Virus record (IMG/VR): IMGVR_UViG_3300047669_001906
Span: 1 to 25,938 of that record
Direction: 5' to 3' (one strand)
Length of the DNA: 25,938 nucleotides
Origin: a virus
Taxonomy: Duplodnaviria; Caudoviricetes
Numbering within the stretch: position 1 is the first letter of the stretch; each line of letters begins with the position of its first letter. Shown in pieces: positions 7,393 through 25,938 of this stretch. The translations under genes were made by a program, and so were the position numbers. The notes under the pieces are model-generated. The model was given only the letters and a program-made list of their open reading frames with translations. It ran no database searches and had not been told where the DNA came from.

Positions 7393-7399
7393 CTAAATA
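7393..7399 (+). promoter_or_regulatory. Putative late promoter (CTAAATA)
   Basis: Intergenic, 5 nt before the gp25 ATG. Confidence 0.65.
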
Positions 7400-7404
7400 G
7401 TCGT

Positions 7405-7815
7405 ATGCCAGAACTTTCCACAACATTCACCACTAGACGGGCATACAAAGATGTGTCGCTGACGTTCGCAAAGAACCCGATCACAAATGATGTCGTGGCG
7501 GTAACTGGTGCGGCTGCCGTCAAGCGGTCATTACGTCTTCTGCTGTCATTGGATACTGGAGAGACGCCGTTCTTACCTGAGTTCGGCACACGGCTGCGCC
7601 AATTGTTGTTTGAACCCATCGACCCGATCACGACCGTAATGCTCCGTGAAGAAATTGAAACGACGATTGTGGCGTTTGAACCGCGTGTCGCCATTCGGCA
7701 ATTGACGGTAACTCCGAGTGCCGACGAATTTACCTATGAAATTAACTTGTTGTTTACTCTCATCAATCAGACTCAACCACTTACGTTGACTCTATATCTT
7801 TCACGGTTGCGATAA
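7405..7815 (+). CDS. gp25: Baseplate wedge subunit / sheath initiator gp25
   Basis: YKDVSLTF.KNPITNDV......AVKRS...L....GETPF.PEFG..L..LLFEP.D......I...I..FEPRV is the GPW/gp25 signature. Confidence 0.95.
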   Translation: MPELSTTFTTRRAYKDVSLTFAKNPITNDVVAVTGAAAVKRSLRLLLSLDTGETPFLPEFGTRLRQLLFEPIDPITTVMLREEIETTIVAFEPRVAIRQLTVTPSADEFTYEINLLFTLINQTQPLTLTLYLSRLR

Positions 7816-7818
7816 CAT

Positions 7819-9720: not shown

Positions 9721-9723
9721 TAT

Positions 9724-12700
9724 ATGCGACCATATCAACCCGGCCAAGAGTTTTACAATCTCATCAAGACCGCAATACCTGACTTTGTAGAGTCAGAGTA
9801 TCCGGTCTTTGTTGAGTTTGTGATGGCGTTCGTACACTTCTTAGAACAAGAACGTACGACAACGACCGCAACGATAACGCCAGAGTTTGGTCCGTCCACC
9901 AGTAATACCACCACGACCACCACGGTTGGTGGTCCGCTTTATGAAGCCCGCAAGCTCTCGGACTATCGAGATACCGCAACGACATTGGACGAGTTTCGTC
10001 CGCGATTCTTTGCGATGTTCGCCAACGAATTTCCACAACACAGTCATATCAGCGCCGATTGGTTTGTGCGGAGCTTGCGGCAGTTCTATCAGAACAAAGG
10101 CACGACCGAGAGCATTCGTTGGTTCTTCCGCGCATTCTTCAACGAAGAGGCGGAAGTCTATTTTCCGCGTGATGATATCTTCACGGCGTCCGAGGGAACG
10201 TGGGATGCGCCCCGGACGCTGAAGGTATCCAATCCACTCGCGGAGTATACGAACACCGGCACCATCATATATTACTCGGCGAACACGGATGTCAATACGT
10301 ATTATACTGGGCAGCGTATTATCACCGGTACCGGCCAAGCAATTGTCGAACGAGTGGTTAGCTATATTGTCGGCGGCACCGCCAACCAGCGCCACGAAAT
10401 TCATGAACTGACACTTCAGCACGGCAGTGTGGGTGGAACGTTTAGTGAGGATCAATTACTCTACAACATCGATACTCCAAACAAGAGGGTCATCACCCGC
10501 ATTCTACCTGTCATCACCGAGATCACGGTGGATATTGGCGGCACCAACTATGCACCGGATGATCTGGTGCTGGTGTCCGAGGGCCCTGCCGGTGGTGGTG
10601 GATTCGGTGCCTACGGTGTTGTAAGCAAAACGTCTAATGGCGCTATCGGTGGTATTACTATCGATGCTGGTGGATCCGGCTTCAGTGTTGGTGAGCCAGT
10701 CCTGTTCTATAGTGCATCGGGAAGTGGTGCCGGAGCGAATGTCGCGACACTTGCGAACACACAAACAGCACTCTACCTTGACGTAATTCTGGATCCGTTT
10801 ACGAACGCAACAGCAACCGTCACGATGGGTGGTGCTGAAGGAACGCCTGCTAATACGTATTCCGCAGCTAGCCAGAACACATGGACTATAGATACGACGG
10901 CCGCCACAGTGTTCGCCGCGGCAGATACGAAACCGTACTATACACCGTGGGTCTGGACAAACTCAGGAAACACGACGGCGACATTGGCGAACGTGTCCAT
11001 CCTCACAGATGACATTTCTACCGCACCGTTCTTTAGTGAGAATGTGGCGACTGCTGCGGGATACACGGGGCAGGTGTACACACTCAGTTCGGCGACGGAC
11101 ACCACATCGAACACATCGACCGCCACGGTTAATGCGACTCCCGTAGGATACTTCACTGGGGATCTCGCGGGGAACGTTAGTCACACGGTTGGCGCCACGA
11201 AGCTCTACTTCGACAATGTGGGGAACCTCAGTGGGTTGACAACGGGGTTGTATGTCAAACAGGATTATGCAAACCTACAAGTTGGCACAGTCACCACGAA
11301 TGGAACGAACACCGTCATCGGTGTGGCCACCCTCTTTTCACAGACGCTCTCTGTTAATTCACACGTCCGTATTGGAAACGTGTCGAGTGGTTATGATGTC
11401 GTGGTTAAGACGATTAACAGTAACACCTCCTTTACTGCGTACACCACTTCGAATACTGTCACGGCGAACACCTATGGTACCTATGCGATAGGGTATGTGC
11501 GTACGCTCTACCCACGGGCGCAGACATCCTATGGTGCCGTGAACACTGTTGCGCTGTCTTCTATTGGTAGCGGATACGCCGTCTCGCCATTGGTGCTTGT
11601 GGATAGTGTCGATGCGCGAGCGCAGGAGTTGTTCTACTACGACACCGATGCGGGCGCTGTGACAAGTACTGTCGGCCGCGTCTTCGGCGTGTATGCAGAC
11701 GCCATCTTGACGGTAGTGGAAGGTGCCGGACAGATCACCCGTGTGAAAATGCAGAATACGGGCGTGCTGTATACTGATGCGAATACTGTCAGCATTAGCG
11801 TCACACGGGCGGCCGCGGAAATAGGTGATCCTGATCAGGTGCAGGTTAGTGCCACGTTGACACCTGTCATCGGCGCAGAGTCGCAATACGAAGGGCAGTT
11901 CACTACGACAAAGAGCTTCCCGTCCGAGAACAAATATCTTCAGGACGGTGAGTACTACAACAACTACACCTACGTCATTCGTGCCGCGCAGTCGTTTAAT
12001 CGCTATAGCGATGTGCTGAAGAAGATCTTGCACCCGGCCGGGTTCCGTGCCTACGGCAAGTTTGTGGTCACCTCAGAAGTGCCTGTGACTGTTACGGGAA
12101 TGACGGAAACCGCTCTTGTGGATCTCAGTTCATTGTCGCAGTCGCCATCGGCGTCTCTGTCACCATCAGCATCAGTGAGCCCGTCAGCGTCGGTGAGCCC
12201 GTCGAGTTCGTTTAGCCCGTCAACGTCGGTGAGTCCGTCGAGTTCGTTGAGCCCATCGAGTTCGTTGAGCCCATCGAGTTCCATATCACCGTCTCTGTCA
12301 CCATCAACATCAGTGAGTCCGTCAACTTCGACCAGTCCGTCAAGCTCCGCGTCTGGGTCAGTGAGCCCGTCAACGTCGGTGAGCCCGTCGAGTTCTGCAT
12401 CGCCGTCAATCAGCCCGTCGAGTTCGGCGTCGAGTTCATTGAGCCCGTCGGGTTCATTCAGCCCGTCAACCTCCACATCGCCGTCGGCGTCACAGTCGAA
12501 CAGTCCGTCGAGTTCTGGCAGTCCGTCGAGTTCGTACAGTCCGTCGCCATCTTCGTCACTGTCTGCGAGCCCGTCAAGCTCAGTGAGCCCGTCGAGTTCG
12601 CAGAGTCCGTCAAGCTCTTCGTCACTGTCTGCGAGCCCGTCAAGCTCAGTGAGCCCGTCGAGTTCATTCAGTCCATCGAGTTCGGTGAGCCCGTCAAGCT

Positions 12701-14166
12701 CCGCGTCGGCCTCCGTGAGCCCGTCAAGCTCCACGTCGGCATCGGTGAGCCCGTCAACGTCAGTGAGCCCGTCAAGTTCATTCAGCCCGTCGAGTTCGTT
12801 CAGCCCGTCGAGTTCGTTCAGCCCGTCGAGTTCTACCTCGGCGTCCGTGAGCCCGTCGAGTTCAGCGTCGCCGTCGGTGAGCCCGTCAAGTTCCCGTTCG
12901 GCATCTCAGTCAATGAGCCCGTCGAGTTCAGTGTCGCCGTCTAGTTCGGTGAGCCCGTCGAGTTCTGGCAGTCCGTCGAGTTCTGGCAGTCCGTCGAGTT
13001 CGTTCAGCCCGTCTAGTTCCGTGTCCGCGTCACTGAGCCCGTCAAGTTCATTCAGTCCGTCAAGCTCATTCAGCCCGTCGAGTTCCACATCGGCGTCCGT
13101 GAGCCCGTCGAGTTCGTTCAGCCCGTCAAGTTCGGTGTCTGCGTCACTGAGCCCGTCGACCTCCGTGTCGCCGTCTAGTTCAGTGAGCCCGTCGAGTTCG
13201 TTCAGTCCGTCAAGTTCCACGTCACTGTCTACGAGCCCGTCAAGTTCATTCAGCCCGTCGAGTTCATTCAGCCCGTCAAGCTCGGTGAGCCCGTCAAGCT
13301 CTGCGTCACGGTCTACGAGCCCGTCAAGTTCTCGTTCAATGAGCCCGTCAAGTTCGGTGAGCCCGTCAAGTTCGGCGTCTGTGACTGATAGTCCGTCTGC
13401 ATCAGTTAGCCCGTCCGCATCGAAGAGTCCGTCTGCGTCACCGTCAGTGTCGTTCAGCCCGTCGAGTTCATTCAGCCCGTCAAGTTCTGGCAGCCCATCG
13501 AGTTCCGTGAGCCCGTCGAGTTCTGCATCAGTGTCGGTGAGCCCGTCGAGTTCGTTCAGTCCGTCGAGTTCGTTCAGTCCGTCGAGTTCATTCAGTCCGT
13601 CGAGTTCAACATCAGCGTCCGTGAGCCCGTCAAGTTCCGTCAGTCCGTCAAGTTCCGTCAGTCCGTCAAGCTCCGCGTCGGTCTCCGTGAGTCCGTCCGC
13701 GTCAGTGAGCCCGTCAAGTTCGGTGAGTCCGTCAAGCTCCGTCAGCCCGTCAAGCTCCACGTCGGCATCGGTGTCCCCGTCAGCGTCAGTCAGCCCGTCA
13801 AGTTCGGTGAGCCCGTCCAGTTCATTCAGCCCGTCGAGTTCGGTGTCTGTGTCAGTGAGCCCGTCGAGTTCGCAGAGTCCGTCATCGTCACAGTCGAACA
13901 GCCCGTCGAGTTCGTTCAGTCCGTCAAGCTCCGCGTCGGTCTCCGTGAGTCCGTCCGCGTCAGTGAGCCCGTCAAGTTCGGTGTCGGCATCGGTGAGCCC
14001 GTCAAGTTCAGTGAGCCCGTCAAGTTCGCAGAGTCCGTCGAGTTCGTTCAGCCCGTCAAGCTCTACGTCACCAACGGTGAGTCCGTCAAGTTCGCACAGC
14101 CCATCATCGTCGTTTAGTCCGTCTAGTTCGTTTAGCCCGTCGGCATCGGTGTCCCCGTCAGCGTAA
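9724..14166 (+). CDS. gp7: Baseplate wedge initiator, gp7-like, with a ~680-aa C-terminal Ser/Pro repeat
   Basis: N-terminal IPDFV.SEYP.FVEF and FYQNKGT.ES..WFFR.FFNEE.EVYFP; C-terminal LQDGEYYNNYTYVI......Y...LKKILHPAGF..YG. It sits between gp6 and gp8. Confidence 0.8.
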   Translation: MRPYQPGQEFYNLIKTAIPDFVESEYPVFVEFVMAFVHFLEQERTTTTATITPEFGPSTSNTTTTTTVGGPLYEARKLSDYRDTATTLDEFRPRFFAMFANEFPQHSHISADWFVRSLRQFYQNKGTTESIRWFFRAFFNEEAEVYFPRDDIFTASEGTWDAPRTLKVSNPLAEYTNTGTIIYYSANTDVNTYYTGQRIITGTGQAIVERVVSYIVGGTANQRHEIHELTLQHGSVGGTFSEDQLLYNIDTPNKRVITRILPVITEITVDIGGTNYAPDDLVLVSEGPAGGGGFGAYGVVSKTSNGAIGGITIDAGGSGFSVGEPVLFYSASGSGAGANVATLANTQTALYLDVILDPFTNATATVTMGGAEGTPANTYSAASQNTWTIDTTAATVFAAADTKPYYTPWVWTNSGNTTATLANVSILTDDISTAPFFSENVATAAGYTGQVYTLSSATDTTSNTSTATVNATPVGYFTGDLAGNVSHTVGATKLYFDNVGNLSGLTTGLYVKQDYANLQVGTVTTNGTNTVIGVATLFSQTLSVNSHVRIGNVSSGYDVVVKTINSNTSFTAYTTSNTVTANTYGTYAIGYVRTLYPRAQTSYGAVNTVALSSIGSGYAVSPLVLVDSVDARAQELFYYDTDAGAVTSTVGRVFGVYADAILTVVEGAGQITRVKMQNTGVLYTDANTVSISVTRAAAEIGDPDQVQVSATLTPVIGAESQYEGQFTTTKSFPSENKYLQDGEYYNNYTYVIRAAQSFNRYSDVLKKILHPAGFRAYGKFVVTSEVPVTVTGMTETALVDLSSLSQSPSASLSPSASVSPSASVSPSSSFSPSTSVSPSSSLSPSSSLSPSSSISPSLSPSTSVSPSTSTSPSSSASGSVSPSTSVSPSSSASPSISPSSSASSSLSPSGSFSPSTSTSPSASQSNSPSSSGSPSSSYSPSPSSSLSASPSSSVSPSSSQSPSSSSSLSASPSSSVSPSSSFSPSSSVSPSSSASASVSPSSSTSASVSPSTSVSPSSSFSPSSSFSPSSSFSPSSSTSASVSPSSSASPSVSPSSSRSASQSMSPSSSVSPSSSVSPSSSGSPSSSGSPSSSFSPSSSVSASLSPSSSFSPSSSFSPSSSTSASVSPSSSFSPSSSVSASLSPSTSVSPSSSVSPSSSFSPSSSTSLSTSPSSSFSPSSSFSPSSSVSPSSSASRSTSPSSSRSMSPSSSVSPSSSASVTDSPSASVSPSASKSPSASPSVSFSPSSSFSPSSSGSPSSSVSPSSSASVSVSPSSSFSPSSSFSPSSSFSPSSSTSASVSPSSSVSPSSSVSPSSSASVSVSPSASVSPSSSVSPSSSVSPSSSTSASVSPSASVSPSSSVSPSSSFSPSSSVSVSVSPSSSQSPSSSQSNSPSSSFSPSSSASVSVSPSASVSPSSSVSASVSPSSSVSPSSSQSPSSSFSPSSSTSPTVSPSSSHSPSSSFSPSSSFSPSASVSPSA
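12127..14163 (+). repeat. Long imperfect tandem repeat, unit ~18 nt (AGCCCGTCRAGTTCN-TTC/GTG), encoding SPSSS[F/V/G/Q] interspersed with SAS[V/L] spacers
   Basis: Directly visible. About 2 kb, in frame throughout, ending at the stop codon of the gp7-like gene. Confidence 0.98.
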
Positions 14167-14177
14167 ATGGATCACCG

Positions 14178-14184
14178 CTAAATA
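14178..14184 (+). promoter_or_regulatory. Putative late promoter (CTAAATA)
   Basis: Intergenic, upstream of gp8. Confidence 0.65.
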
Positions 14185-14216
14185 CATTATGAGTTTCCGT
14201 ACAGGTCACATCTATT

Positions 14217-15680
14217 ATGCCCACTAACGATACACGTAAATATCTGACATTTTTGTCGAAGCGTTTGAATGAAACGCTGGTGACGAACGAGAAATACGAG
14301 AGTCTCGTTACGACATTTCAGAGTTATCTAGCCGATACCTCGACGGCGGCCGAGGTGAATACGCTGATCGACGATCTTGGCGATATTAGTTCGCGACTCT
14401 ATTTGGGCATTGGACGCCCGGTTGCGTGGGATAACGATAACGCTCCACCGACGCCGGAGACAACGACACAAGCTGTGGACTACATATGCTGGCGTGACTT
14501 GATGGCGATGAAGCGTATTGAAAGTGCGAATACCGCATATGTCATTTCGCGTGTAAACTGGGAAACCAATACCATCTATACACAGTACGACGATACCGTC
14601 GAAAATATTGCGAACACGAACGTGTATGCGCTCGACACCAATGAACTTCCATACAAAGTCTACAAGTGCCTGTGGAACAATAATGACGGCCGCAGTACGA
14701 CCGCTCCGAGTACGACAGGGAATACCGTCAGCCCTGTGGCTACCGCTGACGGATATGTCTGGCAGTACCTCTATAGTATTACAACGGATGATTATCAGTT
14801 TCTCACGACATCGTGGATGCCTGTGCGTACGGATAGTTTAGTCCGCACCTATGCGACCGACAATCCCGGTAAGTTGTCAACCGTCGTGCCCTGTATTATG
14901 ACTGCCAATGGCACGAACTACGATCCAGCGGGTACGTTGACGGTGACTGTCACGGGCGACGGAAACGGCGCGATCATCGCTGCGAATACTTTGAGTTTGA
15001 CATTCACGTCAAACACGACTACGAATATCACACCGTCGAACGGTGGTATTGGGTATACGACAGTAGATACGATTATCGTGGAACAGTCCGGCCGCGCAGT
15101 CGGTTCAACGAATGCGACGGCGCGTATGATTATTCCTGTGTATCCTAATCACGGATATGACCCGCAACGCGAGTTGGGTGCTTCGGCCATTATGTTGAAC
15201 ACCACGTTGCAAGATGACGAAACCGATCAACTATCAACGGTGAACGACTATCGACGGATTATGTTGATTGACAATCCACTCTTGGCGAATGGCGCAAGTG
15301 CCAATGGATCGTTTTACCGACAGACGTTCGACATTACTCTCTCTGCCAATACGGGTGTCTTTGCGCCGGACGATGGAATCAAGGTAACAAACAACACCGC
15401 GTATGCCGTCACTGCTACGGTGGTAGATACGGTTCTTGTATCCAGCGTGCCCGTGGTGCGTGTGACGGATATCAACGACAAGGGCCGTGATGTGGCATTT
15501 CAAATTGGCGACGAAGTCACAGATACGACAACCGAGGGTGTCATTGGTGTAGTCTCAGCGATATCTGCGCCTCAACTGAAACCTTTCTCCGGTGATGTGT
15601 TGTATGTCGATCAACGGGCGCCCGTCACACGGGACCCCAATCAAGCGGAAGATATCAAATTAATCTTTCGATTTAATTAA
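14217..15680 (+). CDS. gp8: Baseplate wedge subunit gp8
   Basis: LYLGIGRPVAW....PP.P, W.D.MAMKRI......VI.R.NW...T.Y..YDD, YKVYKCL.N, DGYVWQYLYSI...F.T..WMPV, HG.DP..ELG, NDYRRI.LI.NP, and the terminal SGDVLYVDQR.PVTR...Q.EDIKLIF.F. Confidence 0.93.
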   Translation: MPTNDTRKYLTFLSKRLNETLVTNEKYESLVTTFQSYLADTSTAAEVNTLIDDLGDISSRLYLGIGRPVAWDNDNAPPTPETTTQAVDYICWRDLMAMKRIESANTAYVISRVNWETNTIYTQYDDTVENIANTNVYALDTNELPYKVYKCLWNNNDGRSTTAPSTTGNTVSPVATADGYVWQYLYSITTDDYQFLTTSWMPVRTDSLVRTYATDNPGKLSTVVPCIMTANGTNYDPAGTLTVTVTGDGNGAIIAANTLSLTFTSNTTTNITPSNGGIGYTTVDTIIVEQSGRAVGSTNATARMIIPVYPNHGYDPQRELGASAIMLNTTLQDDETDQLSTVNDYRRIMLIDNPLLANGASANGSFYRQTFDITLSANTGVFAPDDGIKVTNNTAYAVTATVVDTVLVSSVPVVRVTDINDKGRDVAFQIGDEVTDTTTEGVIGVVSAISAPQLKPFSGDVLYVDQRAPVTRDPNQAEDIKLIFRFN

Positions 15681-15687
15681 CTAAATA
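15681..15687 (+). promoter_or_regulatory. Putative late promoter (CTAAATA)
   Basis: Intergenic, immediately after the gp8 stop. It is the last such intergenic motif seen before the window end. Confidence 0.65.
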
Positions 15688-15720: not shown

Positions 15721-18700
15721 ATGGCACTTAGCAACACCACAGAAAATACGCTGCGAACGACACCGTATTACGATGACTATTACGAAGTCGCCAACACGAC
15801 CACTGGGCTGTTGCGTGGTGATGACTTCGACTTTCATCGAATCATGTTTCGTCCACGCTACGGTGTTCAGGCGCGTGAACTAACGCAGATACAAACACTT
15901 TTACAGTCGCAGTTGGAGCATCTCGGCACGACGCAGTTCCGTGATGGGGATCGCGTCCTCGGCGCGTCGTTGACGATTGATACATCCGCTAATAGTGGAC
16001 AGGTACTTGCGACCACGAATCTGGCGAGCTTCTTCAATCGCACCACGAATGACGGCAAGTATGTTTATGCCAAAGTGGCAGGAGTAACGGATCTCACGAC
16101 CACGGGGCGCATCACACAGTTTGTCTCGATTGATGACGCCGAAACCACGAACAACTATCTCGTCTTCAAATACACCAGCACCAACACCTTTGGCGCGGAA
16201 GGCGTTATTCAGGATCGCGATGACGCGACGGTAACGGCGACGTTCGCAGCGGGAGCGAATTCGTCTGTCTTTCATAGTGCATCCACGATTAGTGTGGATG
16301 AAGGGGTGATGTTTGTCTCCGGCTTCTTCGTACGCGTCAAGCCGCAGACTATCGTGCTTGATGCGCTAACGAACACTCCCTCCTACCGGGTCGGTATGGA
16401 AGTCGTGGAAGAGTTCCTCGATGAACTGGATGATGTCGTCGGTGCGTCACTCCTTGATGAAGCGAATCGTAGCGCCGTTGGCGCACATCGGTTCCGTGTT
16501 CGTCTGACCCTGTCGAAGCGAGCTATTACGGACACTGCGGATGCTGGATTCATTGAGATCGCTCGCGTCGTTGACGGGCAGATTCTCTACACGCAATCTA
16601 ATGCAAAATATGTCACGGCCGCTGAACTGAAGCTCACGCTCGCACGGCGTACCTACGACGAGTCCGGCGACTATATGATTCGCCCGTTCTTGCCCGTAGT
16701 GGAAGCTGCGAGCTTGGCCAATTCTACGAACTCTGCGGATATCACAACTCTCCAGTTATCGCTCTCGTCAGGAAAGGCGTATGTGCGTGGGTTTGAAATG
16801 GAAACCACCGCGCCGGTGCGGCTGAGTATTGACAAGGGACGAACGACGGAATCGGCGACCAATCGAACACTACCCGCGACCGTAGGAAGTTACCTGCTAG
16901 TCAACCGTGTCTCTGGTACAACGGCGCCGAACAACTATTTTGTTGGCACCACGACAGTAGACGTACACTCTGTTGCGCCGACGAGTATTGATACGGCAAG
17001 TGCGACGACGTACGCGTACTCGAAGATTGGTACCGCGAAGGTTCGAATGCTGGAAAGCTATAGTGTTCCACTCGCGGCCGCCATTTCGGAACTTGCGAAC
17101 AGTAGCGTCTACAAACTCTTTACATACGATTGGAATTTTACAAGTCTCACAGGAAATCTAGCGAGTACAGCCACGATTGTTGATGGAGCAATCCAGTTAC
17201 CGGTTGCGGTAGGAGATGGGTTCCCGGCTGTCAACACAGCAATTACGGGGGCAACCGTCGTTCTTAGTGGTGCGGCTTCTCCGGTAACGGGCACGTTCAC
17301 CGCTAATAGCTACCACTTTCTCGGTTCGGACGCGTATATCACGCTGAAAGAATATCTTGCTGTACTGCCAAATGCGAATACCACCTATCGTTTGTTATTC
17401 CAGCCAAGAGACGCGGATGCGTTTACGTTGTATGATGCTACAAAAGCTTACGACAATGCGATATATGCGGACAATCTCTCTTTCCAAGCGAACGTAGCGC
17501 CTGCTGGAAAGATTAACGGCACACCCAACGGCTATTCACTGATTAGTTCCACGGGCACCAACAAACTGATTTACCAGCTTCCCGAAAAGTTTATCGAGTC
17601 GGGAAGTATTGACACAAGCACCGCAACGTTCTCTACGTGGCATGCGTCGGCTTCAAATACTCGGACCTTCAGTAGCGCCACTAGCGGCGCGCTGTCACTT
17701 TCGTTCGCAGGAAATACCTTTAGCATTCCCGCAGGAACCTATACGGCAGAAGAAGCTCGAAAGTATTTCACGATCTTTGATATCACCGCTGATGCAAATG
17801 GATATGGTCAAGTTGTCCAGTTTACCGATTCCACGCCGGCCGGGAGCGAGCGAGCGATTAACGGCGTGAGTATCTCTTCTGCTGGTTCGCCAACAGGAAG
17901 TGAGTATCACCTATCATTCACGTACTACCACGGCGCGTCAACGAGTGATACGCGCACCTTCATCGCGACTGGTAAAGCTCTCGTCACTGGTTCGTCCGCA
18001 CGAACGAAAAACTATTATGTTGGTAATACTACGAGCTACCATGCGTCTGCAACGACCGCGTTGGTTAATGGACAGGTGGAATATCATACGCTGAACACGG
18101 CGCCGAGCTTTGCGTATTCGCTTCGCACACATGATGTGACGAATCTGCGGAAGGTACTGTATAAGAGCAGCAACACGGTCTTCTCTACTGGAGATATGTC
18201 TACCGCCACGGATGTTACGTCGCACTTCAGACTGGATACGGGGCAACGCGACAACCATTACAACTACGGCCGCGCCATTGTCGGGACGGGCGCAAGTGCT
18301 GTGATCGTCACGACTGGGCGTCTGCTGTTTATCTTTGACCACTTCATGCACTCGGGTATTGGATACGCGACGGTGGATAGTTATCTCTCGACGAACAATG
18401 TCGATAAGGGCATGACGTACGATACTATTCCCACGTATGTCTCTCCGAAATATGGGCGAGGGACGAACTTACGTGCCTGTCTGGACTTCCGTGTCGCGCA
18501 AGGCCATTATGGGGCGGCGACCGGAAATGTTGCGTTGGTGTTTGCGTCAACAAATACGAGTGCCAACAGCACATATGCGGCCAGCGATGGTACGCCCTAT
18601 CTTATTCCCGTGTCCGACGATATCTGGAATGGTGATTACGATTACTATCTGGCGCGGAAGGATGCTGTATCGATTACCGCCAACGGAGCGTTCCATGTCA

Positions 18701-19569
18701 CGAAAGGACAGGCTGCGGTATTCCCAGAGGCGCCGCATATCGAAGCAACAGACTTGTTGCTCTATCGATTGACTATTCCTGCATATACGCTCGTTGATGG
18801 GGCGGGCATTCCTACTAATGTCACCGTGAAGTCGTACGACTACAAGCGATACACAATGCGGGACATCGCAAAGGTGGACGACCGTGTAAAGCGGGTAGAG
18901 TACTATACGGCACTGTCGCAACTGGAACGCCTCACGCTTGACACGACGGAACTAGATGCCGACGACAACGAGCGGTTCAAGAACGGGATTGTGGTGGATA
19001 ATTTTACAAGCACCGGAACCGCGCATGTGTCCCATATAGACTTCGCCGCGTCCATTGACACACGCAAGCACGTACTACACTCCGCGTTCAGATCGTTCTC
19101 GACGCAGTTCAGCACGGACTATGCGAACACCACCACGGCTGGTATTACCGTTGTTGGTGATATCGCCATTCCGGCCTATACGACGGAGGAGTTCATTTCA
19201 CAGCCGTTAGCAACCAAATCGGTTTCGGTAAACCCATTTGATATCGGTTCCTTCTACGGGAAGATTCAATTGTCACCAGCGGTGGATACGTGGAAGTCTA
19301 CCACGACACTTCCGGCACAGGTAATAGACGGGGGTGGTCCGACGCAAGCGTGGATCAATGCAAACCTGCCTGCGTACACGGTGTGGGGTGAATGGAATAC
19401 GACATGGACCGCAACAGCACCCGAAGAAGAAGAAGAAGAAGAGAATGGCACAGAATGGCGTGTCAACGAGGGGAGTGAGAGCGCAAAGGCAGGCGAGTAT
19501 AATTGGCGAAGTTGGGAAGCCTGGGACGCCGCCGGTAATCCACCACTCGTAAGACGGACCGACGTTTGA
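15721..19569 (+). CDS. Large virion structural protein, VrlC/DUF4815-like, N-terminal part
   Basis: PYYDDY...FHRIMFRP...VQARELTQIQ..LQ.Q, A.GAHR, LARRTYDESGDY, GKAYVRGFE, LDTGQRDN.Y, KRYTMRDI.....R...VEYYT.LS.LE, RFKNG..VDNF, QPLAT..V.VNPF and L.P..DTW are hallmarks of this family in environmental T4-like phages. Confidence 0.85.
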   Translation: MALSNTTENTLRTTPYYDDYYEVANTTTGLLRGDDFDFHRIMFRPRYGVQARELTQIQTLLQSQLEHLGTTQFRDGDRVLGASLTIDTSANSGQVLATTNLASFFNRTTNDGKYVYAKVAGVTDLTTTGRITQFVSIDDAETTNNYLVFKYTSTNTFGAEGVIQDRDDATVTATFAAGANSSVFHSASTISVDEGVMFVSGFFVRVKPQTIVLDALTNTPSYRVGMEVVEEFLDELDDVVGASLLDEANRSAVGAHRFRVRLTLSKRAITDTADAGFIEIARVVDGQILYTQSNAKYVTAAELKLTLARRTYDESGDYMIRPFLPVVEAASLANSTNSADITTLQLSLSSGKAYVRGFEMETTAPVRLSIDKGRTTESATNRTLPATVGSYLLVNRVSGTTAPNNYFVGTTTVDVHSVAPTSIDTASATTYAYSKIGTAKVRMLESYSVPLAAAISELANSSVYKLFTYDWNFTSLTGNLASTATIVDGAIQLPVAVGDGFPAVNTAITGATVVLSGAASPVTGTFTANSYHFLGSDAYITLKEYLAVLPNANTTYRLLFQPRDADAFTLYDATKAYDNAIYADNLSFQANVAPAGKINGTPNGYSLISSTGTNKLIYQLPEKFIESGSIDTSTATFSTWHASASNTRTFSSATSGALSLSFAGNTFSIPAGTYTAEEARKYFTIFDITADANGYGQVVQFTDSTPAGSERAINGVSISSAGSPTGSEYHLSFTYYHGASTSDTRTFIATGKALVTGSSARTKNYYVGNTTSYHASATTALVNGQVEYHTLNTAPSFAYSLRTHDVTNLRKVLYKSSNTVFSTGDMSTATDVTSHFRLDTGQRDNHYNYGRAIVGTGASAVIVTTGRLLFIFDHFMHSGIGYATVDSYLSTNNVDKGMTYDTIPTYVSPKYGRGTNLRACLDFRVAQGHYGAATGNVALVFASTNTSANSTYAASDGTPYLIPVSDDIWNGDYDYYLARKDAVSITANGAFHVTKGQAAVFPEAPHIEATDLLLYRLTIPAYTLVDGAGIPTNVTVKSYDYKRYTMRDIAKVDDRVKRVEYYTALSQLERLTLDTTELDADDNERFKNGIVVDNFTSTGTAHVSHIDFAASIDTRKHVLHSAFRSFSTQFSTDYANTTTAGITVVGDIAIPAYTTEEFISQPLATKSVSVNPFDIGSFYGKIQLSPAVDTWKSTTTLPAQVIDGGGPTQAWINANLPAYTVWGEWNTTWTATAPEEEEEEENGTEWRVNEGSESAKAGEYNWRSWEAWDAAGNPPLVRRTDV
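19423..19443 (+). repeat. (GAA)6GAG microsatellite encoding poly-Glu
   Basis: Directly visible near the 3' end of the first VrlC-like ORF. Confidence 0.9.
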
Positions 19570-19602: not shown

Positions 19603-22600
19603 ATGTCAGAAACAGTAACCGCATCTGTGTCGGAACGCACAGGCACCGAATTTTCATACACCTCGCAAACGAATACACAGTCACTTGGCAACGTGATTTT
19701 GGACACCTCTGTTGTTCATAGTATCCGAGCCCGAGACGTTGTGTTCGCCGCCAATGGGTTGCGTCCGAATGCCACGCTGTATCCGTTTTTTGATAGTGTG
19801 TCGGTGCAAAAATATGTGCAGCAAGCAAATGTGCTTGAACTGAACCCCGTCGCTGCGAGTGACATTCCCTCGGGCACCTTCTTCATTGGACAGACGCTCT
19901 ATGTGAAAAAAGCCTTGACGGGGACCGTAAGCACTATCACCAATTCAACGGCAGTCACCGGAACCAGTACTGAGTTTGACTTCGAATTGTTGTCGAATCA
20001 GTTGGTGCGTGTCAAGTCTGGTGTGGATGTGTTTGATCGATACATCGCCAGTGTTTCGTCAAACACCGCCGCGACCTTCGATAGCAATGCTGCCCTCAGG
20101 TTGAATGGTGCAACCCTTTACACATTGACCCGTGTCGTGGTCGCAGATGTCACCCCGCGTTTGTCGAACTCGGGCGCTACGATCACATACACACTCAAGT
20201 GCACTCGGGCGCAGCAGGATGTGGACGCTGATGCCATTCTTGGGCCCGGGCTGAACTACGGCAGTGCGACGGGTACATTTACGGATCGTGGATCGCGCCT
20301 CATTCTACCGGAAGATAATGGCGCGTATGCTCGGAAGTTTAGCTACGCCGCCGGGAGTTTGCGCCCCGAGAAAATGGCGAAAGATTCTGGTGTTGGCACG
20401 GTCGGTGCCGAGGTTATTTTGCCGATGTCCTCCCGTACGTCCAGTGTTCTCAGCGCGGCCAGTGTTGCGGTAGAAACAAAGACACTCACGGTTAACACGG
20501 CGGTGATTACCTCGGGCGTCGTGCGGGCGTATGATTCAAACAACCTTCGGTTGGACGTGGACATCACGGATACCAAAATCGCCAACACCACGGTGATCTA
20601 TTTTGTCGGTGGGCCTGGCGCGGGACAGAGTGCGAGTGTCACCAACTATCACTCAGCGAACCAGACGGCGGTTATTGATACAAGCGCACTCACAGATATC
20701 ACAGCGGGACAGACGATCTATAGCGTCGGGTCGTTGTCATCTGATGGGTTCCTTGCGAACAGTACGGTGACTGCGGGTGGTGCGGGTACCGTATCGGGGG
20801 TGCTTCATCTTCAGGAAGGGCAGTTCGCGACTGGTCAACGACTCTTCCGTTTGACGGATAGCAGTACAAACGATCTCTCAAGCGCCACGACCACCGCAGA
20901 AACCAACTATGTGGCCTCCGGTTTGTCGGTGTCGCAGCAACCCACTAGTATCGTATCTCGTACCACCAATGTCACGCGACGTGGTGTCCACGACTCTCGT
21001 TATTGGGAGAACGACACCTACACGTCATGCCCAGAAGGATGGGCAGATCCACTAGCGGAAACGTTCCTTGTGGATGCGACACGCTTTCCACAGGGTATCA
21101 TGCTAGCCTCGGTGGACTTGGTGTTCTCAGCAAAACCTACCGATGACATTCCAGTCACGGTTGAACTTCGACCAGTTATCAATGGATATCCTTCGTCATA
21201 TCAGGTAGTGCCGTGTGCGTCACCAGAAGGACAAGCGTCTACCACACTGCGGTACGACGCCGTGAATGTTGTCACAACGGATTTGTCTACCGCGTTCAGC
21301 AACACATCCGCGTACACGCGATTCACGATGCCCTCACTGGTTCACCTGTTGCCTGGTATTGAGTACGCCCTTGTGGTTCGCTCCGACTCTTCGGAATATA
21401 AAGTCTACACCGCCGAACTCGGCGCGCAGGTGCTTGGCACCGATAAGAAGGTTGCGAAGCAGCCCTATGCGGGCAGCTTCTTCAAGTCACAGAACGGATC
21501 GACGTGGACCGAAACACCATTTGAAGATATGATGTTCCGCTTGAACAAAGCAAAGTGGACATTGTCGAGTGGTGCGAACACTGGCATCCTTGTCGCCCGT
21601 GGCGTGCAACCGGCGACAACCAAGACATTTGATTCGATGACGTTCTATCCGTATGAAGTTACCTTCCCGTTGGTGACATCGACGAGCTATTCGTTGAGCG
21701 TCAAGCCAGAAGGTTCGGGCACCGCAGTTGCGTATAGCGTTCAACCGAACAAACTGGTAGCGTTGTCCTCACGGTCGTTCTTAACCGGGAGCTACGACGC
21801 GAACGCTGCGCCACAGTTCTACCCTGCTTTTGCGAATAGTGCGCCAGCGGGTCAGACAGTCAGCGGGGTGTCAGCGAATACCATCGATACCATCGCCACG
21901 CTCACAACGCGAAGCACTGATGTCGCACCGTATGTCGATCTAAAAAAGATGACTGTCCTTGGTATACAGAATCGCATCAATGAGATGGAACTGTATGCGA
22001 CACAGTTTGTCATTCTCGATCCCGGTAGTGGCTATGCGAATGCGGCCGCAGCCACAGGCACCGTCACGACGGTCGCATCGTCTAACGTTGTGACAGGGAC
22101 GGGCAGTGCGTTCCTCACCTCAGTTATTGTGGGACGAGATGTGGTGATCGGGGCCAACTTGGCGGTGACCGTTGCGTCCATCGAAAGCGACTCTCAGTTT
22201 ACTGCGACAACGACCGCCGGTGAAGCCCGCGTCGCGAATGCGTTCTCGACCTTTGCGAACCTGACGATGACAATAAGCGCCAGTAATGTCGGTGCGAATG
22301 CAGTAGGATACGCAGTTGTATCCACCGTCAATAGTTCCATCGTCACGGGCACTGTTACTAGTCTTGTGTTAACGACTGACGGAAGTGGCTACCTCACTAC
22401 GCCGACTGTTACGGTATCTGGCAATGCGGCGCTGACGTATCGTGGCGAGGACTCCGCACAGCATGGTAATGCGCTGACACGATACTTCACACGGGAGGTG
22501 TCGTTAGCGGAAGGGTTCGACGCTCGCGACATCAAGATGTACTTTGATGGATATCGCCCCGAGGGTACTAACTTCTATGCCTATTACAAGGTGCTATCGG

Positions 22601-22857
22601 GCACGTTGGATAGCGAGAGGTTTGCGGATCAGCCATGGCGATTGATGACACAAATCACGCCGGATGGAGTGATCAGCACACGTGCCACACAGTATCGGGA
22701 GTTTGAGTTCCGCACGCCGCAAAGTCAAGCGTTGACATCATCTACGGATACCACGGATCGGTTCAAAGTGTTCTCCATTAAAATAGTGATGTCTACCAAC
22801 GATACGACCGTCGTGCCGAAGATTCGCAACTTCCGCGCTATTGCCTTGGATGAGTAA
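19603..22857 (+). CDS. Large virion structural protein, VrlC/DUF4815-like, C-terminal part
   Basis: It has an AAGGA RBS and motifs IRAR.V.F...GLRPN...YPFFD, F.TG.R.FRLTDS, DPLAETF.V......G..L.SVDL.FS.KP, T.F.....V.L....EYA.V, QPY.GSFFKSQNGSTWT....ED.MF.L.KA, and the terminal F..FSIKIVM......VP.I.N.RAIAL. Confidence 0.85.
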   Translation: MSETVTASVSERTGTEFSYTSQTNTQSLGNVILDTSVVHSIRARDVVFAANGLRPNATLYPFFDSVSVQKYVQQANVLELNPVAASDIPSGTFFIGQTLYVKKALTGTVSTITNSTAVTGTSTEFDFELLSNQLVRVKSGVDVFDRYIASVSSNTAATFDSNAALRLNGATLYTLTRVVVADVTPRLSNSGATITYTLKCTRAQQDVDADAILGPGLNYGSATGTFTDRGSRLILPEDNGAYARKFSYAAGSLRPEKMAKDSGVGTVGAEVILPMSSRTSSVLSAASVAVETKTLTVNTAVITSGVVRAYDSNNLRLDVDITDTKIANTTVIYFVGGPGAGQSASVTNYHSANQTAVIDTSALTDITAGQTIYSVGSLSSDGFLANSTVTAGGAGTVSGVLHLQEGQFATGQRLFRLTDSSTNDLSSATTTAETNYVASGLSVSQQPTSIVSRTTNVTRRGVHDSRYWENDTYTSCPEGWADPLAETFLVDATRFPQGIMLASVDLVFSAKPTDDIPVTVELRPVINGYPSSYQVVPCASPEGQASTTLRYDAVNVVTTDLSTAFSNTSAYTRFTMPSLVHLLPGIEYALVVRSDSSEYKVYTAELGAQVLGTDKKVAKQPYAGSFFKSQNGSTWTETPFEDMMFRLNKAKWTLSSGANTGILVARGVQPATTKTFDSMTFYPYEVTFPLVTSTSYSLSVKPEGSGTAVAYSVQPNKLVALSSRSFLTGSYDANAAPQFYPAFANSAPAGQTVSGVSANTIDTIATLTTRSTDVAPYVDLKKMTVLGIQNRINEMELYATQFVILDPGSGYANAAAATGTVTTVASSNVVTGTGSAFLTSVIVGRDVVIGANLAVTVASIESDSQFTATTTAGEARVANAFSTFANLTMTISASNVGANAVGYAVVSTVNSSIVTGTVTSLVLTTDGSGYLTTPTVTVSGNAALTYRGEDSAQHGNALTRYFTREVSLAEGFDARDIKMYFDGYRPEGTNFYAYYKVLSGTLDSERFADQPWRLMTQITPDGVISTRATQYREFEFRTPQSQALTSSTDTTDRFKVFSIKIVMSTNDTTVVPKIRNFRAIALDE

Positions 22858-23063
22858 TGCTGATACAGACCGATGACCGCAAGCATGTACGGGACACCTA
22901 TAACAACGCGTTACTATTAACCGACAAAAAGGCTCTCACGCGGTCGCGGGCCCGACGCGAATCCGCGAAGGGCGTATTGTCCCTTAGATCTGAGATTGAC
23001 GAATTGCAAGCACATGTGTTACAATTGACTTTACATGTCACACAACTTCTTAAGGCAAGATAA
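22857..23063 (+). CDS. Small coiled-coil protein of the type usually following VrlC-like genes in T4-like phages
   Basis: TAATG coupling at both ends; RD..N.A...TD motif plus a C-terminal heptad (LRSEIDELQAHVLQL). Confidence 0.7.
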   Translation: MLIQTDDRKHVRDTYNNALLLTDKKALTRSRARRESAKGVLSLRSEIDELQAHVLQLTLHVTQLLKAR

Positions 23064-23749
23064 TGGCTAAGGTTGCTGGTAGTATTTGGGTCGAAGGAAC
23101 CGCGCTTCATTATGTGGATAGCGCGGCTGTAGAATATTATATTATCGGCACCAACAAGGGGTCGGCCGGCGCCGGTATAAATGGCTCAATTTGGATGGAG
23201 TCTGATCGTTTACGGTATGTAGATACCTCTGGAAACATACGCGAATGTTCTACTATAGACACCTATGGTACACATACGGGCGCGGTTGCCGGATCACTGT
23301 GGATAGAAAATACTGCGGCTGGGAATCAGCAGTTACGGTATATTGCCAGCGGAACTGGTGAGAACTCCCCGCATGATGATGTGGCATTTGGGGACGTATC
23401 ACATTCGGACGTGGCGCATACCGATACGACTACACACAACGATATACATACCGATAACCATAGCGACTCTGGCGGGCCCGGCCACACGGATTCGGCCGAA
23501 GGTAGTGGCCATGCTGATCATAACGATGATCATGGTGACCACGATGATGATAGCGATCACACTGATAACGACGGGCAGCCGCACGGAGATCACAGCGACG
23601 GCGCGGGGCACGGCGATCATAACGATGATCATGGTGACGAAACTACCGAGTCGCACACCGATAGTTCTAGCCATTCGGACGTAGCACACACAGATGTTCC
23701 ACACGCAGATGCCACACATGCTGATCAGCCCATTTACGTGGGTGCGTAA
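23063..23749 (+). CDS. His-x-Asp repeat protein: three N-terminal GS(I/L)W.E...L.Y repeats plus 22 HxD motifs; candidate radical-SAM substrate and candidate virion fibre/decoration
   Basis: The ORF is coupled to the structural operon and its motifs are directly visible. Function is inferred from the adjacent rSAM/SPASM gene. Confidence 0.8.
   Translation: MAKVAGSIWVEGTALHYVDSAAVEYYIIGTNKGSAGAGINGSIWMESDRLRYVDTSGNIRECSTIDTYGTHTGAVAGSLWIENTAAGNQQLRYIASGTGENSPHDDVAFGDVSHSDVAHTDTTTHNDIHTDNHSDSGGPGHTDSAEGSGHADHNDDHGDHDDDSDHTDNDGQPHGDHSDGAGHGDHNDDHGDETTESHTDSSSHSDVAHTDVPHADATHADQPIYVGA
23372..23725 (+). repeat. HxD tripeptide array with internal duplications (exact 24-nt repeat at 23516-23539 and 23615-23638; HSDVAHTD twice)
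   Basis: Counted by hand from the translation and the nucleotide sequence. Confidence 0.92.
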
Positions 23750-23769
23750 AGTTTTACGGCAAAAATATT

Positions 23770-25029
23770 ATGAGTATTGAGATTCGACCTGTTGGCGTCA
23801 GTTGTCAGTTGCAATGCACCTATTGTTATGAAGAGGGAATGCGAGAAGAGCAGCGATCACATCGATATGATCGTGATGCGGTATTAGCCTCCATCAAAAA
23901 ACTTGGTCCCAAGGACCATTTCTCTTTATTTGGTGGGGAGTGTTTGTTATTGCCACTCCATCATCTTGAGGAACTCCTGTCAATTTCCCATGCCCGATCA
24001 GGTCGTTCATCGGTGCAGACTAATGGCGCATTGATTACCGACAAACATATTGAACTGTTCATTAAGTACAACACACATGTGGGTATTTCATTAGATGGCC
24101 CAGATGAATTAAATGACAGTCGGTGGGCAGGTACATTAGAGGCGACACGCAAGCAGACAGCACGAACGCTTCATGCGATTGATACGTTGCTTTCGTTATC
24201 GGTACAACATCCGCGTCTTCGGCCCAGTCTTATTGTCACTATGCACGCCGGGAATTCTAGTGCAGAACGATTTCCTCGGTTTGTGTCATGGCTTCATGAG
24301 TTAGATGATCGGGGGCTTAAACAGATAAATCTTCATACAATGGAGATGGATCACAAAGCAGATACATTATACCTGCCACAAGAAGAATTGTCGGATCGGT
24401 TATTGGACATTTGGCGAATCCATGTTCCAACATTTAAGCAACTACGCATGTCTAAATTTGAGGAGATTTTGAAACTCCTCAGGGGTGCTGATGATGTCGT
24501 GTGTCATTGGAAACCGTGCGACCCGTGGAATACAAGTGCCGTCAACGGTATTGAGAACGACGGTTCTGTCTCTCACTGCTCGCGAACAAACAAAGACGGG
24601 TTCAACTGGATGCCAGCAGAGGGGTCGGGCGACCCAAATGGTAGTTTCATAGGGCACCCAGGCGCTCGCCACTATGAACGACAGATGGCGCTCTACCAAG
24701 CACCACAAGAATTTGGTGGATGCAAAGATTGTGAATATTGGTTGATGTGCTACGGTCAATGCCCAGGCGAAGGGCAGTCCAATGATTGGCGAATGCGTTC
24801 TACATATTGTTCAACATACAAGAAGTTATTTGCAGAAGGCGCACGAAGACTTCGTGAGGCGGGGACGATTCCGCTGTGTGACTGGACGAATAGAAAAGAA
24901 CTTGAGCAGGCAGCGTTTTCGAAATGGCAGAATCAATCATCGTCACACTTATCAACATTAACCGGGCAGCCCAACGGCGGTAGGCAATCTCACGGCGATC
25001 ACACGGATCACAATGATAATACATTATGA
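23770..25029 (+). CDS. Radical SAM / SPASM-domain enzyme (anSME / peptide-maturase class)
   Basis: CQLQCTYC (CxxxCxxC), FGGE, QTNG and GISLDGP..LND.R in the core. The C-terminal Cys cluster (C.WKPC...DG.V..C...CKDC...MC.G.CP...YC) is consistent with SPASM auxiliary clusters. Confidence 0.93.
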   Translation: MSIEIRPVGVSCQLQCTYCYEEGMREEQRSHRYDRDAVLASIKKLGPKDHFSLFGGECLLLPLHHLEELLSISHARSGRSSVQTNGALITDKHIELFIKYNTHVGISLDGPDELNDSRWAGTLEATRKQTARTLHAIDTLLSLSVQHPRLRPSLIVTMHAGNSSAERFPRFVSWLHELDDRGLKQINLHTMEMDHKADTLYLPQEELSDRLLDIWRIHVPTFKQLRMSKFEEILKLLRGADDVVCHWKPCDPWNTSAVNGIENDGSVSHCSRTNKDGFNWMPAEGSGDPNGSFIGHPGARHYERQMALYQAPQEFGGCKDCEYWLMCYGQCPGEGQSNDWRMRSTYCSTYKKLFAEGARRLREAGTIPLCDWTNRKELEQAAFSKWQNQSSSHLSTLTGQPNGGRQSHGDHTDHNDNTL

Positions 25030-25938
25030 ATGATAAACAGAATGTTCTAGCAAGTGACACCCCCACACTTCCCGATTGGACACGATGGTCGTGGCGAAGT
25101 CCAGTTGAACGTGAGTGGTGGAATCCGTTGTTCAAAGCAGCGGCGAATGCCTATGAAAGTGTTGAACGGTTGTCGGTTGTTGATGGCGTTCGCTCGGCGG
25201 CATCGCAGATAATAGCACCCGAAGAATTAGTAGGGCTCACAGAGTGGGCGCGCAATCATAATATTCTTTGCATACCAATAGATAGAATTAGTTATTCCAA
25301 TTCATACTCATCGGTAGAAACGAAACTAAAAAATGGTGAACGATTTAAGTATCGGGTGTTGTTTGTTCGTCCAGAACAATACGCAGATACCGTCGATTTA
25401 TCAAATATCTCCTCGCGTTCCGACCGTCGATCCGCGACGGCGCCGTCATATGTCGACCGATTCGGGAAACTATTAGGCTTTCCCGAATGTTGCCGAAAAG
25501 CGTTTCTGGAAACGTGGGGTCGCGGGCAAGTCGATAGTACATGGGAGCAACATTGTTCGCCCATGTTACCCATGACCAGTACACTGTTGCGGTGGATGGG
25601 TCTTCGCCTCGTCTCTCACATGCCATGTCATTATAGGTGTGAAGCATCACAAAAGATTGCGGAGCAAATGTTTCAGGTGGGCGCGCGGCATGGATATCTG
25701 GAAGAGATGCGATTGATTAAGGAAGTCCTCGCGTGGCCAGTAAAATGGTCTCGGCTGTTCGGGATTGCGGAGATTGTAACTCCTGCGGTCAAAATTTCCA
25801 CACGCACCGATTGGACACCTCGTAAAGATGAGTTCAGTACGACGGGTCCGTATCGACAACCGAAGAAAACGTGGTGGATAAACAACGGATTCGATAATGC
25901 TCGGGACCTGGGCCGAGCGCACGGGGACATGGTTAACG
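25026..25938 (+). CDS. Cys-motif protein (GKLLGFPECC...HMPCHYRC; resembles DUF483-like proteins), truncated by the window end
   Basis: Not in the ORF track because there is no stop in the window. ATGA overlap with the rSAM stop. Manual translation MNDKQNVLASDTPTLPDWTRWSW...FGKLLGFPECCRKAF...LLRWMGLRLVSHMPCHYRCEAS...WPVKWSRLFGIAEI.TP...WWINNGF is open for over 300 codons. Confidence 0.8.
   Translation, partial: MNDKQNVLASDTPTLPDWTRWSWRSPVEREWWNPLFKAAANAYESVERLSVVDGVRSAASQIIAPEELVGLTEWARNHNILCIPIDRISYSNSYSSVETKLKNGERFKYRVLFVRPEQYADTVDLSNISSRSDRRSATAPSYVDRFGKLLGFPECCRKAFLETWGRGQVDSTWEQHCSPMLPMTSTLLRWMGLRLVSHMPCHYRCEASQKIAEQMFQVGARHGYLEEMRLIKEVLAWPVKWSRLFGIAEIVTPAVKISTRTDWTPRKDEFSTTGPYRQPKKTWWINNGFDNARDLGRAHGDMVN

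Follow-up and report, generated by a model that had tools for sequence, protein, structure and literature searches.

The window analysed in the current study, the whole of a 25,938 nt stretch of DNA from a virus of the Caudoviricetes (IMG/VR record IMGVR_UViG_3300047669_001906, positions 1–25,938), represents the block of baseplate genes of a T4-like myovirus, with gp53, gp5, gp25, gp6 and gp8-type genes and a DUF4815/phrog_358 protein carried by two open reading frames (ORFs). At its right-hand end, on the plus strand, lies a cassette of three genes: a repeat protein of 228 aa with 22 His-x-Asp (H-x-D) motifs (nt 23063–23749), a radical S-adenosylmethionine (SAM)/SPASM enzyme of 419 aa (nt 23770–25029), and a DUF483-like partner (nt 25026–25938) that is cut by the window end. 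A first-pass annotation, made from the sequence without database searches, had described this trio as a phage-encoded system resembling those of ribosomally made peptides that undergo post-translational modification (RiPPs), where the enzyme would modify the H-x-D motifs of a virion protein. Contig L004 is a longer near-copy of the window end (99.99% identity over 7,917 nt) and shows the gene order further on: repeat protein, radical SAM enzyme, the third gene (458 aa, L004 nt 7005–8381), a fibre-like ORF of 449 aa (L004 nt 8395–9744), a neck-type ORF, the T4 neck protein, gp15 and the small terminase. The L001 counterpart of the neck-type ORF matches a head-tail adaptor family, while the 449-aa ORF of L004 gave no family match. 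The cassette sits between baseplate and neck genes, and in T4 itself the short fibre and fibritin genes are located between the baseplate and neck genes.

The His-x-Asp repeat protein

All 22 histidines of residues 104–221 (nt 23372–23725, plus strand) lie in H-x-D triplets, in agreement with the first-pass count, and the two remaining histidines of the protein fall within the N-terminal domain. In 20,000 shuffles of residues 104–221 the mean number of H-x-D motifs was 5.6 (standard deviation 1.9) and the maximum 13, compared with the 22 observed. The 22 motifs are encoded by 17 distinct 9-mers, with both His codons and both Asp codons in use, and Tandem Repeats Finder (TRF) returned just one 34-bp row within the gene. 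An origin of the motif by chance or by DNA slippage was rejected in view of the shuffles, the 17 distinct 9-mers and the near-empty TRF output; the motif is preserved at the protein level, with no DNA tandem repeat.

AlphaFold2 gives a confident all-beta prediction for residues 1–103 (nt 23063–23371, plus strand; predicted local distance difference test about 90). Most of the array is modelled with low confidence, and the array is predicted to be disordered if unmodified. The N-terminal domain (N-domain) has three repeats with an invariant G-S-x-W and, from its linkage to a fibre motif (see below), is predicted to be a fibre-docking domain. Foldseek found no match to the repeat protein in the PDB at an E value of 0.001. 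The best row for the N-domain in VIA-align (a weak one, to the LlpA beta-prism, Z 4.1) and the best result of an Atlas search (0.88) are leads only.

The middle of the array (nt 23443–23657) is replaced in L123, a second allele, and contigs that skip this segment occur in two of the four seawater runs examined. Such variation between co-existing alleles is as expected of a host-contact part. A rough ratio of non-synonymous to synonymous substitution rates, calculated between L004 and L123, came to 0.2 in the enzyme, and the N-domain gave 1.2 (8 synonymous and 31 non-synonymous changes), which, as one pair with small counts, is no proof of selection.

The radical SAM/SPASM enzyme

The second gene was taken in the first-pass annotation to encode a complete radical SAM/SPASM enzyme, and this is confirmed by a CxxxCxxC triad (C12, C16, C19) and eight SPASM cysteines (residues 245, 250, 270, 318, 321, 327, 331 and 347). 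The triad is kept in 144 of 144 aligned homologues and the eight SPASM cysteines in at least 143 of them; the cysteines of the enzyme also align with those of the sulfatase maturase anSME. The family is an unnamed one, and the enzyme scores below every cut-off among the best 25 of its 48 NCBIfam matches. The best full-length match is the anSME model TIGR03942 (86 bits, cut-off 349), and anSME is also the best match of the enzyme in a PDB sequence search. Clustering with sulfatase maturases had been raised at the outset as a point that would speak against a cross-linking enzyme. The best match is indeed of this kind, but its score is far below the cut-off and a sulfatase motif was found at none of the 141 loci. 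Where anSME has F-Q-G-G-E and C-D-F, the aligned enzyme has F-G-G-E and C-S-R, so that F54 and S271 stand at the places of the Gln before GGE and the Asp after the SPASM Cys, which we take to be catalytic residues of anSME. The nearest full-length match does not decide the function, because the cyclophane synthase DarE is described as likewise nearest to anSME by full length (PMC10288494). By analogy to a catalytic-site profile of DarE, XncB and SjiB, the putative active-site positions are Y20, F54, Q83, S107, S271 (Gly in 100 of 144 homologues) and R272.

The C-terminal tail of the enzyme itself carries three H-x-D triplets (residues 408–416; nt 24991–25017, plus strand), and at least two tail triplets are present in 98 of the 120 homologues listed, with as many as 32 in some (P0077, P0097, P0112). 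The tail may represent a fused substrate or a site of self-modification, and one might speculate that it is self-modified or else autoinhibitory.

The DUF483-like partner

The Cys-motif partner of the first-pass annotation does have a conserved Cys/His set (C155-C156, H198, C201, C205), but its ORF runs past the window end, and in L004, where it is whole (458 aa), the DUF483-like part is followed by a C-terminal class I methyltransferase domain. Relationship to DUF483 is indicated by a match to PF04467 just under the cut-off (E 2.9e-5, 24.5 bits, cut-off 25) and by Atlas DUF483 clusters (0.94). Searching PDB sequences with a profile of the partner gave no match, nor did Foldseek against the PDB at an E value of 0.001, while VIA-align returned, as leads only, the uncharacterised structure 2guk (Z 7.6, root-mean-square deviation 3.6, 111 aligned) and, weakly, the methyltransferase 4r29 (Z 4.9). 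A second allele exists within this gene at nt 25289–25464, a low-confidence loop of the predicted model, where 174 nt are exchanged for 150 others in three of the four DNA runs examined.

Distribution of the cassette

Related loci were seeded from the enzyme only, since the repeat protein gave no usable conserved stretch, and arrays were therefore sampled beside the enzyme. The set comprised 55 viral loci, 66 from GTDB genomes and 77 from metagenomes (the best 80 of 382 metagenome matches were kept), and the resulting family size is a lower bound. A scorable enzyme was present in 193 of the 198 loci, and these formed 141 clusters at 90% identity, 88 of which had at least 3 kb of flank on both sides. 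An array was defined as at least five H-x-D, or at least eight aromatic-x-Asp/Asn, in 60 residues, on the same strand and no more than 4 kb away.

The partner accompanies the enzyme in all 88 well-flanked clusters, is fused to it in 11, and has a methyltransferase attached in 41. Arrays were found in 71 of the 88 clusters (viral 24/26, GTDB 33/47, metagenome 14/15), compared with 2 of 84 on the opposite strand and 1 of 59 at a distance of 4–8 kb. A general lack of such neighbours had been named beforehand as an outcome contrary to the proposal, and the reverse was found, with enzyme homologues generally adjoining aromatic-x-Asp/Asn arrays. Among the 3151 histidines of the array proteins, 2526 are in H-x-D, 674 in D-x-H, 205 in HD, 142 in H-x-x-D and 28 in H-x-S. 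The system is found in phages, as first described, but is not confined to them, given the 66 loci from GTDB genomes. The carriers of the array are diverse, and include stand-alone proteins like that of the window, tail proteins of 700–1470 aa, bacterial proteins with LamG or PKD domains, and peptides of 60–80 aa. What these carriers have in common is the motif, and this points to it as the substrate.

Several groups of non-viral loci have distinct arrangements. In GTDB loci L057, L068, L074, L088, L092 and L111, short H-x-D tails end proteins of 865–2260 aa, several of which have LamG, crystallin or PKD domains, and the sequences of these bacterial versions suggest modified surface proteins in cells. 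Six acidobacterial loci (L080, L082, L084, L090, L091, L107) are compact and RiPP-like, with free H-x-D peptides of 63–77 aa, a radical SAM-DUF483 fusion and, in most, an HExxH gene. Loci from halophile genomes, haloarchaeal plasmid records among them (L116, L118, L119, L115, L117), form a divergent enzyme branch, and some have the same N-domain repeat protein together with the fibre motif.

Variation of the motif and neighbouring hydroxylases

Where the aromatic residue is swapped, the spacing of i and i+2 is retained: F-x-N is dominant in L034 and L039, Y-x-D in L109, and H-x-N in L112 and L129. Arrays have 5–11 F-x-N in six loci with two radical SAM paralogues and 0–1 in ten single-enzyme sister loci. 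This association of enzyme duplication with F-x-N arrays, representing one evolutionary event, is suggestive only.

Second in frequency among the neighbour families comes an alpha-ketoglutarate HExxH peptide hydroxylase, found within 6 kb in 26 of the 88 loci (viral 3/26, by profile) and fused to the radical SAM enzyme in two. Six of the eight members that match TIGR04267 exceed its cut-off; the other two, which are from phages, do not. ChlH, of the HExxH family, is described as hydroxylating His and Asp only once the cyclophane is in place (PMC12636437). The defining feature of triceptides is a bond from the aromatic residue to C-beta within aromatic-X2-X3 motifs (PMC11499958), and both halves of a His-Asp ring have precedents among them, namely His C2 donors (HaaB, YhhB, HtkB) and Asp C-beta acceptors (YxdB, Tyr-Asp; OscB, Trp-Asp/Asn) (PMC11002830). 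The frequent HExxH neighbours and the variation of the motif fit triceptide-type cross-linking.

Linkage to a tail fibre

A stand-alone N-domain is accompanied by a separate ORF ending in the sequence R-L-V-[LI]-P-V-G-x-x-x-[WY]-A-T (the fibre motif) in 24 of 31 loci, compared with 4 of 111 loci without a stand-alone N-domain, and three of these four hold a fused form of the domain. The motif-bearing ORF is often directly upstream, loci L003 and L012 each contain a pair of these ORFs along with a pair of repeat proteins, and in many homologues the fibre motif and N-domain occur in one chain. The 449-aa ORF of L004 ends in the motif, as does Cumys_14 of the Thermus phage Cumys, which lies directly before the repeat protein gene Cumys_13 and after a tail collar fibre gene. 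Among 52 longer N-domain relatives, 34 have at least five H-x-D, and several others carry LamG, PA14 or PKD domains. At 15 of the 26 viral loci a PHROG tail, connector or virion neighbour is present, in a scan that covered the first 330 residues of 124 of the 248 neighbours. Since the N-domain co-occurs with, or is fused to, the fibre C-terminal motif, the repeat protein likely caps a fibre.

Relationship to known systems

The first-pass annotation knew of no described equivalent, which does not hold: the trio had been published, under the name 'rSAM module', from the Thermus phages Cumys and phiMa (PMC11437467). In that paper the third gene of the module is called unknown and DNA modification is proposed; its main text says nothing of the repeats, HxD, histidine, RiPP and post-translational all being without a match there, the supplement and Fig. 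3B lying outside that search. Matches to enzyme and partner among 50,697 phage records were restricted to Cumys, phiMa and phiLo. The enzyme shares 40.2% identity with Cumys_12 over 99% of its length (tblastn, E 9e-84) and falls in the same tree, and the partner is 29% identical to Cumys_11 over 94%. By inspection of its translation, Cumys_13 has 54 of 54 histidines in H-x-D, three G-S-x-W repeats and a C-terminal D-Q-P end as in the window protein. With all three genes homologous (Cumys_13/12/11), the window locus belongs, by sequence comparison, to the Cumys/phiMa module, which there closes the baseplate/tail block. The window phage differs in being T4-like and marine, in having a partner with a fused methyltransferase, and in having the fibre gene downstream.

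T-even phages carry gp38-type proteins, monomeric adhesins that sit on the trimeric fibre tip and are encoded beside their fibre. By analogy, the repeat protein has a small N-terminal docking domain containing Trp and a low-complexity, variable C-terminal part, and its three repeats might cap a trimer as in the gp38-type adhesins. Unlike gp38, its variable part is of His-Asp rather than glycine-rich composition, dedicated enzymes accompany it, and there is no sequence or fold match (none above Z 4.1). The His-Xaa-Ser system also combines a His-x-X repeat protein with adjacent radical SAM genes (HxsA/B/C/D), and was rejected as a match on the basis of the motif counts (28 H-x-S vs 2526 H-x-D) and because no Hxs model is found in the best 25 of 48 NCBIfam matches. 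Another resemblance is to the H-x-H iron sites described in tail fibres (T4 gp37 tip; PMC11705849), with which the array shares His triplets, a tail-fibre context and occurrence in a marine phage; it differs in being H-x-D and dense, in its predicted disorder, in that F-x-N can take its place and in its association with a radical SAM enzyme.

The closest functional parallel is with the triceptide systems (HaaB, YhhB, HtkB, YxdB, OscB, ChlB/ChlH). In common with these, the cassette has a radical SAM/SPASM enzyme beside repeated aromatic-x-X3 motifs, uses His, Tyr or Phe as the aromatic residue and Asp or Asn as the acceptor, and has HExxH or 2-oxoglutarate-Fe(II) hydroxylases near part of the family. 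It differs in having 9–93 motifs on a domain-bearing protein, where triceptides have a few on a leader-core peptide, in its obligate DUF483-like partner, and in lacking a protease or exporter at the window locus, whereas characterised triceptides are described as maturing by proteolysis (PMC12912966). His-to-Asp pairing is not among the published examples compared. From these sequence comparisons the module most likely works like a triceptide system, but it is not classed as one, as it fails the family cut-offs and has no protease or exporter.

Proposed function of the cassette

The gene content of the cassette, its motif and the conservation of the trio are directly observed. It is quite probable that the enzyme modifies the array in some way, the array being, with good confidence, its substrate. 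Given that substrate, triceptide chemistry is a reasonably likely course: the enzyme would abstract hydrogen at the Asp C-beta, followed by attack on the imidazole and a loss of 2 Da per triplet. On the model of HaaB, YhhB and HtkB, the atom attacked would be His C2. The fibre-like protein whose gene immediately follows the cassette ends in the fibre motif, which the three-repeat N-domain quite probably binds, and the repeat protein would stay on the particle. The DUF483-like partner likely assists the enzyme; more speculatively, it may bind metal through its Cys/His set, present the substrate or be a second enzyme, and the methyltransferase might tailor the product. Unlike a RiPP, the repeat protein would have no leader removed and would not be exported, and neither a leader-removal protease nor an export transporter is present among the genes of the window (as had been noted at first) and L004. 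Taken as a whole, the proposal that the cassette cross-links each His with the Asp at i+2, in a protein that docks on the fibre tip as a stiffened host-contact element, is judged to be just on the probable side. The original suggestion of radical SAM modification of an H-x-D virion protein has gained comparative support from the 71 of 88 loci with arrays, the motif swaps, the HExxH genes in 26 of 88 loci and the fibre linkage, while the bond and the virion location are what we infer. A broader statement is held tentatively, at slightly less than an even chance: that phages from unrelated lineages staple His-x-Asp or Phe-x-Asn triplets by the dozen to form a cyclophane chain on a fibre-tip protein, that bacteria do likewise on surface-type proteins and short peptides, and that DUF483 is a required helper.

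A number of observations weigh against this proposal. The enzyme is under all of the triceptide-synthase cut-offs (AmcB 75 vs 425 bits, YhhB 61 vs 445, GrrM/OscB 49 vs 310, XyeB 32 vs 450; FxsB was also among the families compared, which scored 32–75 bits against 310–450), and the partner is without a counterpart in the triceptide systems described in the papers compared. The co-occurrence counts are phylogenetically non-independent, and 17 of the 88 loci, 14 of them from GTDB genomes, fail the array definition, most without a clear substrate. Thermus phage phiLo has enzyme and partner with no array gene alongside, its nine H-x-D being only in the enzyme tail. No active-site residue tracked motif type cleanly; H159 is altered in both F-x-N loci, but also in the H-x-D loci L018 and L021. 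No HExxH gene is found at the window's own locus, within L004. Triplets just three residues apart are common (248 spacings), and full stapling may be sterically limited. Finally, the partner is present in 2 of 401 genomes of the L068 phylum, and in one of these (G048) it lies beside dpdK and dpdD without an H-x-D array. Among the 17 loci that fail the definition, the array of L060 is encoded on the opposite strand, and there are tails of 3–4 motifs in L057, L074 and L092. In G048 (locus L203) the enzyme pair lies between two related coiled-coil ORFs (nt 10223–11038 and 7323–7916 of that locus); one has seven H-D-Q heptads, and the other a weak lectin-like bacteriocin match.

Modification of the array by something other than a His-Asp carbon-carbon ring, such as epimerisation at C-alpha, a cross-link through N, or oxidation or decarboxylation of Asp, together with methylation by the fused methyltransferase, is unlikely, although it would suit an enzyme that is outside all characterised families, the methyltransferase domain in 41 of 88 loci, and a partner, obligate in 88 of 88, that is foreign to the triceptide systems compared and has a fold resembling 2guk and, weakly, a methyltransferase. 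An aromatic residue at i, where His, Phe and Tyr can replace one another, combined with Asp/Asn at i+2 is nevertheless the prediction of an aromatic-to-C-beta ring; moreover, Phe has no ring nitrogen, and the HExxH neighbours are of a kind known to need a cyclophane.

It is improbable that the array is modified on a protein that is no lasting part of the virion, being either a chaperone for fibre assembly or a precursor from which host proteases remove the array. The 60–80-aa free H-x-D peptides of the acidobacterial loci listed above would agree with a precursor role, as would the lack of a match between the N-domain and known virion structures, but many phages have the array as the C-terminus of a 700–1470-aa protein by the tape-measure genes, or fused behind the fibre motif, and the window and L004 are devoid of protease and transporter genes.

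More doubtful still is an unmodified, metal-binding array, comparable to the H-x-H iron sites of fibres, with the enzyme pair acting elsewhere, for example in the DNA modification proposed for the Thermus phage module. Chains rich in His and Asp can bind metals, and the dpd-adjacent genome and the 17 loci without an array by the definition used would be in keeping with such a role. Since Phe is unable to bind metal, the F-x-N arrays, which have no His ligand and still keep the cassette, argue against a plain metal sponge, and H-x-D outnumbers D-x-H 3.7-fold. Peptide hydroxylases occur alongside the cassette, and the enzyme tail itself carries the motif. As to DNA modification, no DpdD or DpdK homologue was found in the ORFs of the other 198 loci (positive control, 213 matches), the lone label of this kind among 124 viral neighbours scanned was a secondary methyltransferase match on a helicase, and even at the dpd-adjacent locus the gene upstream of the enzyme pair has seven H-D-Q heptads. 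That the enzyme is an anaerobic sulfatase maturase whose target is a sulfatase of host or phage, as the best NCBIfam and PDB matches suggest, is rejected as having next to no probability, given the score well below the cut-off, the differing residues at the anSME places, the lack of a sulfatase motif at the 141 loci and the same nearest match for DarE.

If cross-linking of the repeat protein is correct, it would represent radical SAM cross-linking of a virus structural protein, with the chemistry of peptide antibiotics building a rigid and variable part of a virion. Searches of an open-access library listed no paper on a His-x-Asp array motif or on radical SAM cross-linking of virion proteins, most subscription papers being beyond that search. 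The His-Asp ring would join the triceptide set, and the enzyme would be one that sets tens of rings on a fusion to a folded domain without leader cleavage, which would be useful for protein stapling. DUF483 would acquire a role, and the published DNA-modification proposal for the module would be replaced. The question also bears on host recognition by phages, as the array middle differs between co-existing alleles. It is directly testable, since the enzyme pair is present in three Thermus phages in culture, of which Cumys has an array of 54 triplets.

Gene order and putative promoters upstream of the cassette

The sequence bears out the junctions reported for the run of genes leading through the cassette (TAATG, TAATG, a 20 nt gap and ATGA). 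The cassette was also said to follow the baseplate genes. The block is indeed of the baseplate, but the genes directly preceding the cassette are those of the DUF4815/phrog_358 protein and a 68-aa ORF, neither a named baseplate gene. By family matches, the former is a 1084-aa phrog_358 protein (nt 19603–22857, plus strand), the second part of a DUF4815-type protein that is split into two ORFs (nt 15721–19569 and 19603–22857); L001 is split alike. The 68-aa ORF (nt 22857–23063, plus strand) has no family match and overlaps both neighbours by TAATG, and a family of small ORFs resembling it occurs in seven related T4-like loci.

The last TAAATA before the cassette, and the last on the plus strand of the window, is at nt 15682–15687, in keeping with the description that no new late box intervenes before the cassette. 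We take TAAATA to be a T4-type late box, and it would presumably be the promoter of the unit that ends in the cassette. The next TAAATA (L004 nt 8379) lies just past the third gene and precedes the fibre gene. The full TATAAATA, unlike the TAAATA core, was absent in a scan of the window, and scans for sigma-70 promoters and terminators were near chance (14 vs 9.1 and 8 vs 6.9, respectively). Four RNA runs cover the region patchily, as contigs, and are unfit to show transcription or to rank genes. At least half of the sampled words of nt 22800–25938 are contained in 18 of the 24 runs among those listed, all of which are seawater or marine metagenomes, and one of which may be the sample that the window came from.

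Other structural genes of the phage

The gp5-like hub is encoded by two ORFs with an ATGA overlap, an OB domain alone (nt 3836–4174, 112 aa) and a part of 675 aa (nt 4171–6198) that has no lysozyme Pfam match. The large baseplate wedge protein (ORF nt 9724–14166) ends in about 670 residues of Ser/Pro/Val tandem repeats (nt 12166–14141; 409 Ser, 99 Pro), and S-P-S-S-S repeats are also present on two other structural ORFs, at nt 6209–6340 of the window and at the C-terminus of gp15 in L004. Past the small terminase, L004 carries a second radical SAM gene (nt 13076–14170) and a family-2 glycosyltransferase (nt 14167–14904), and glycosylation of the virion is a possibility.

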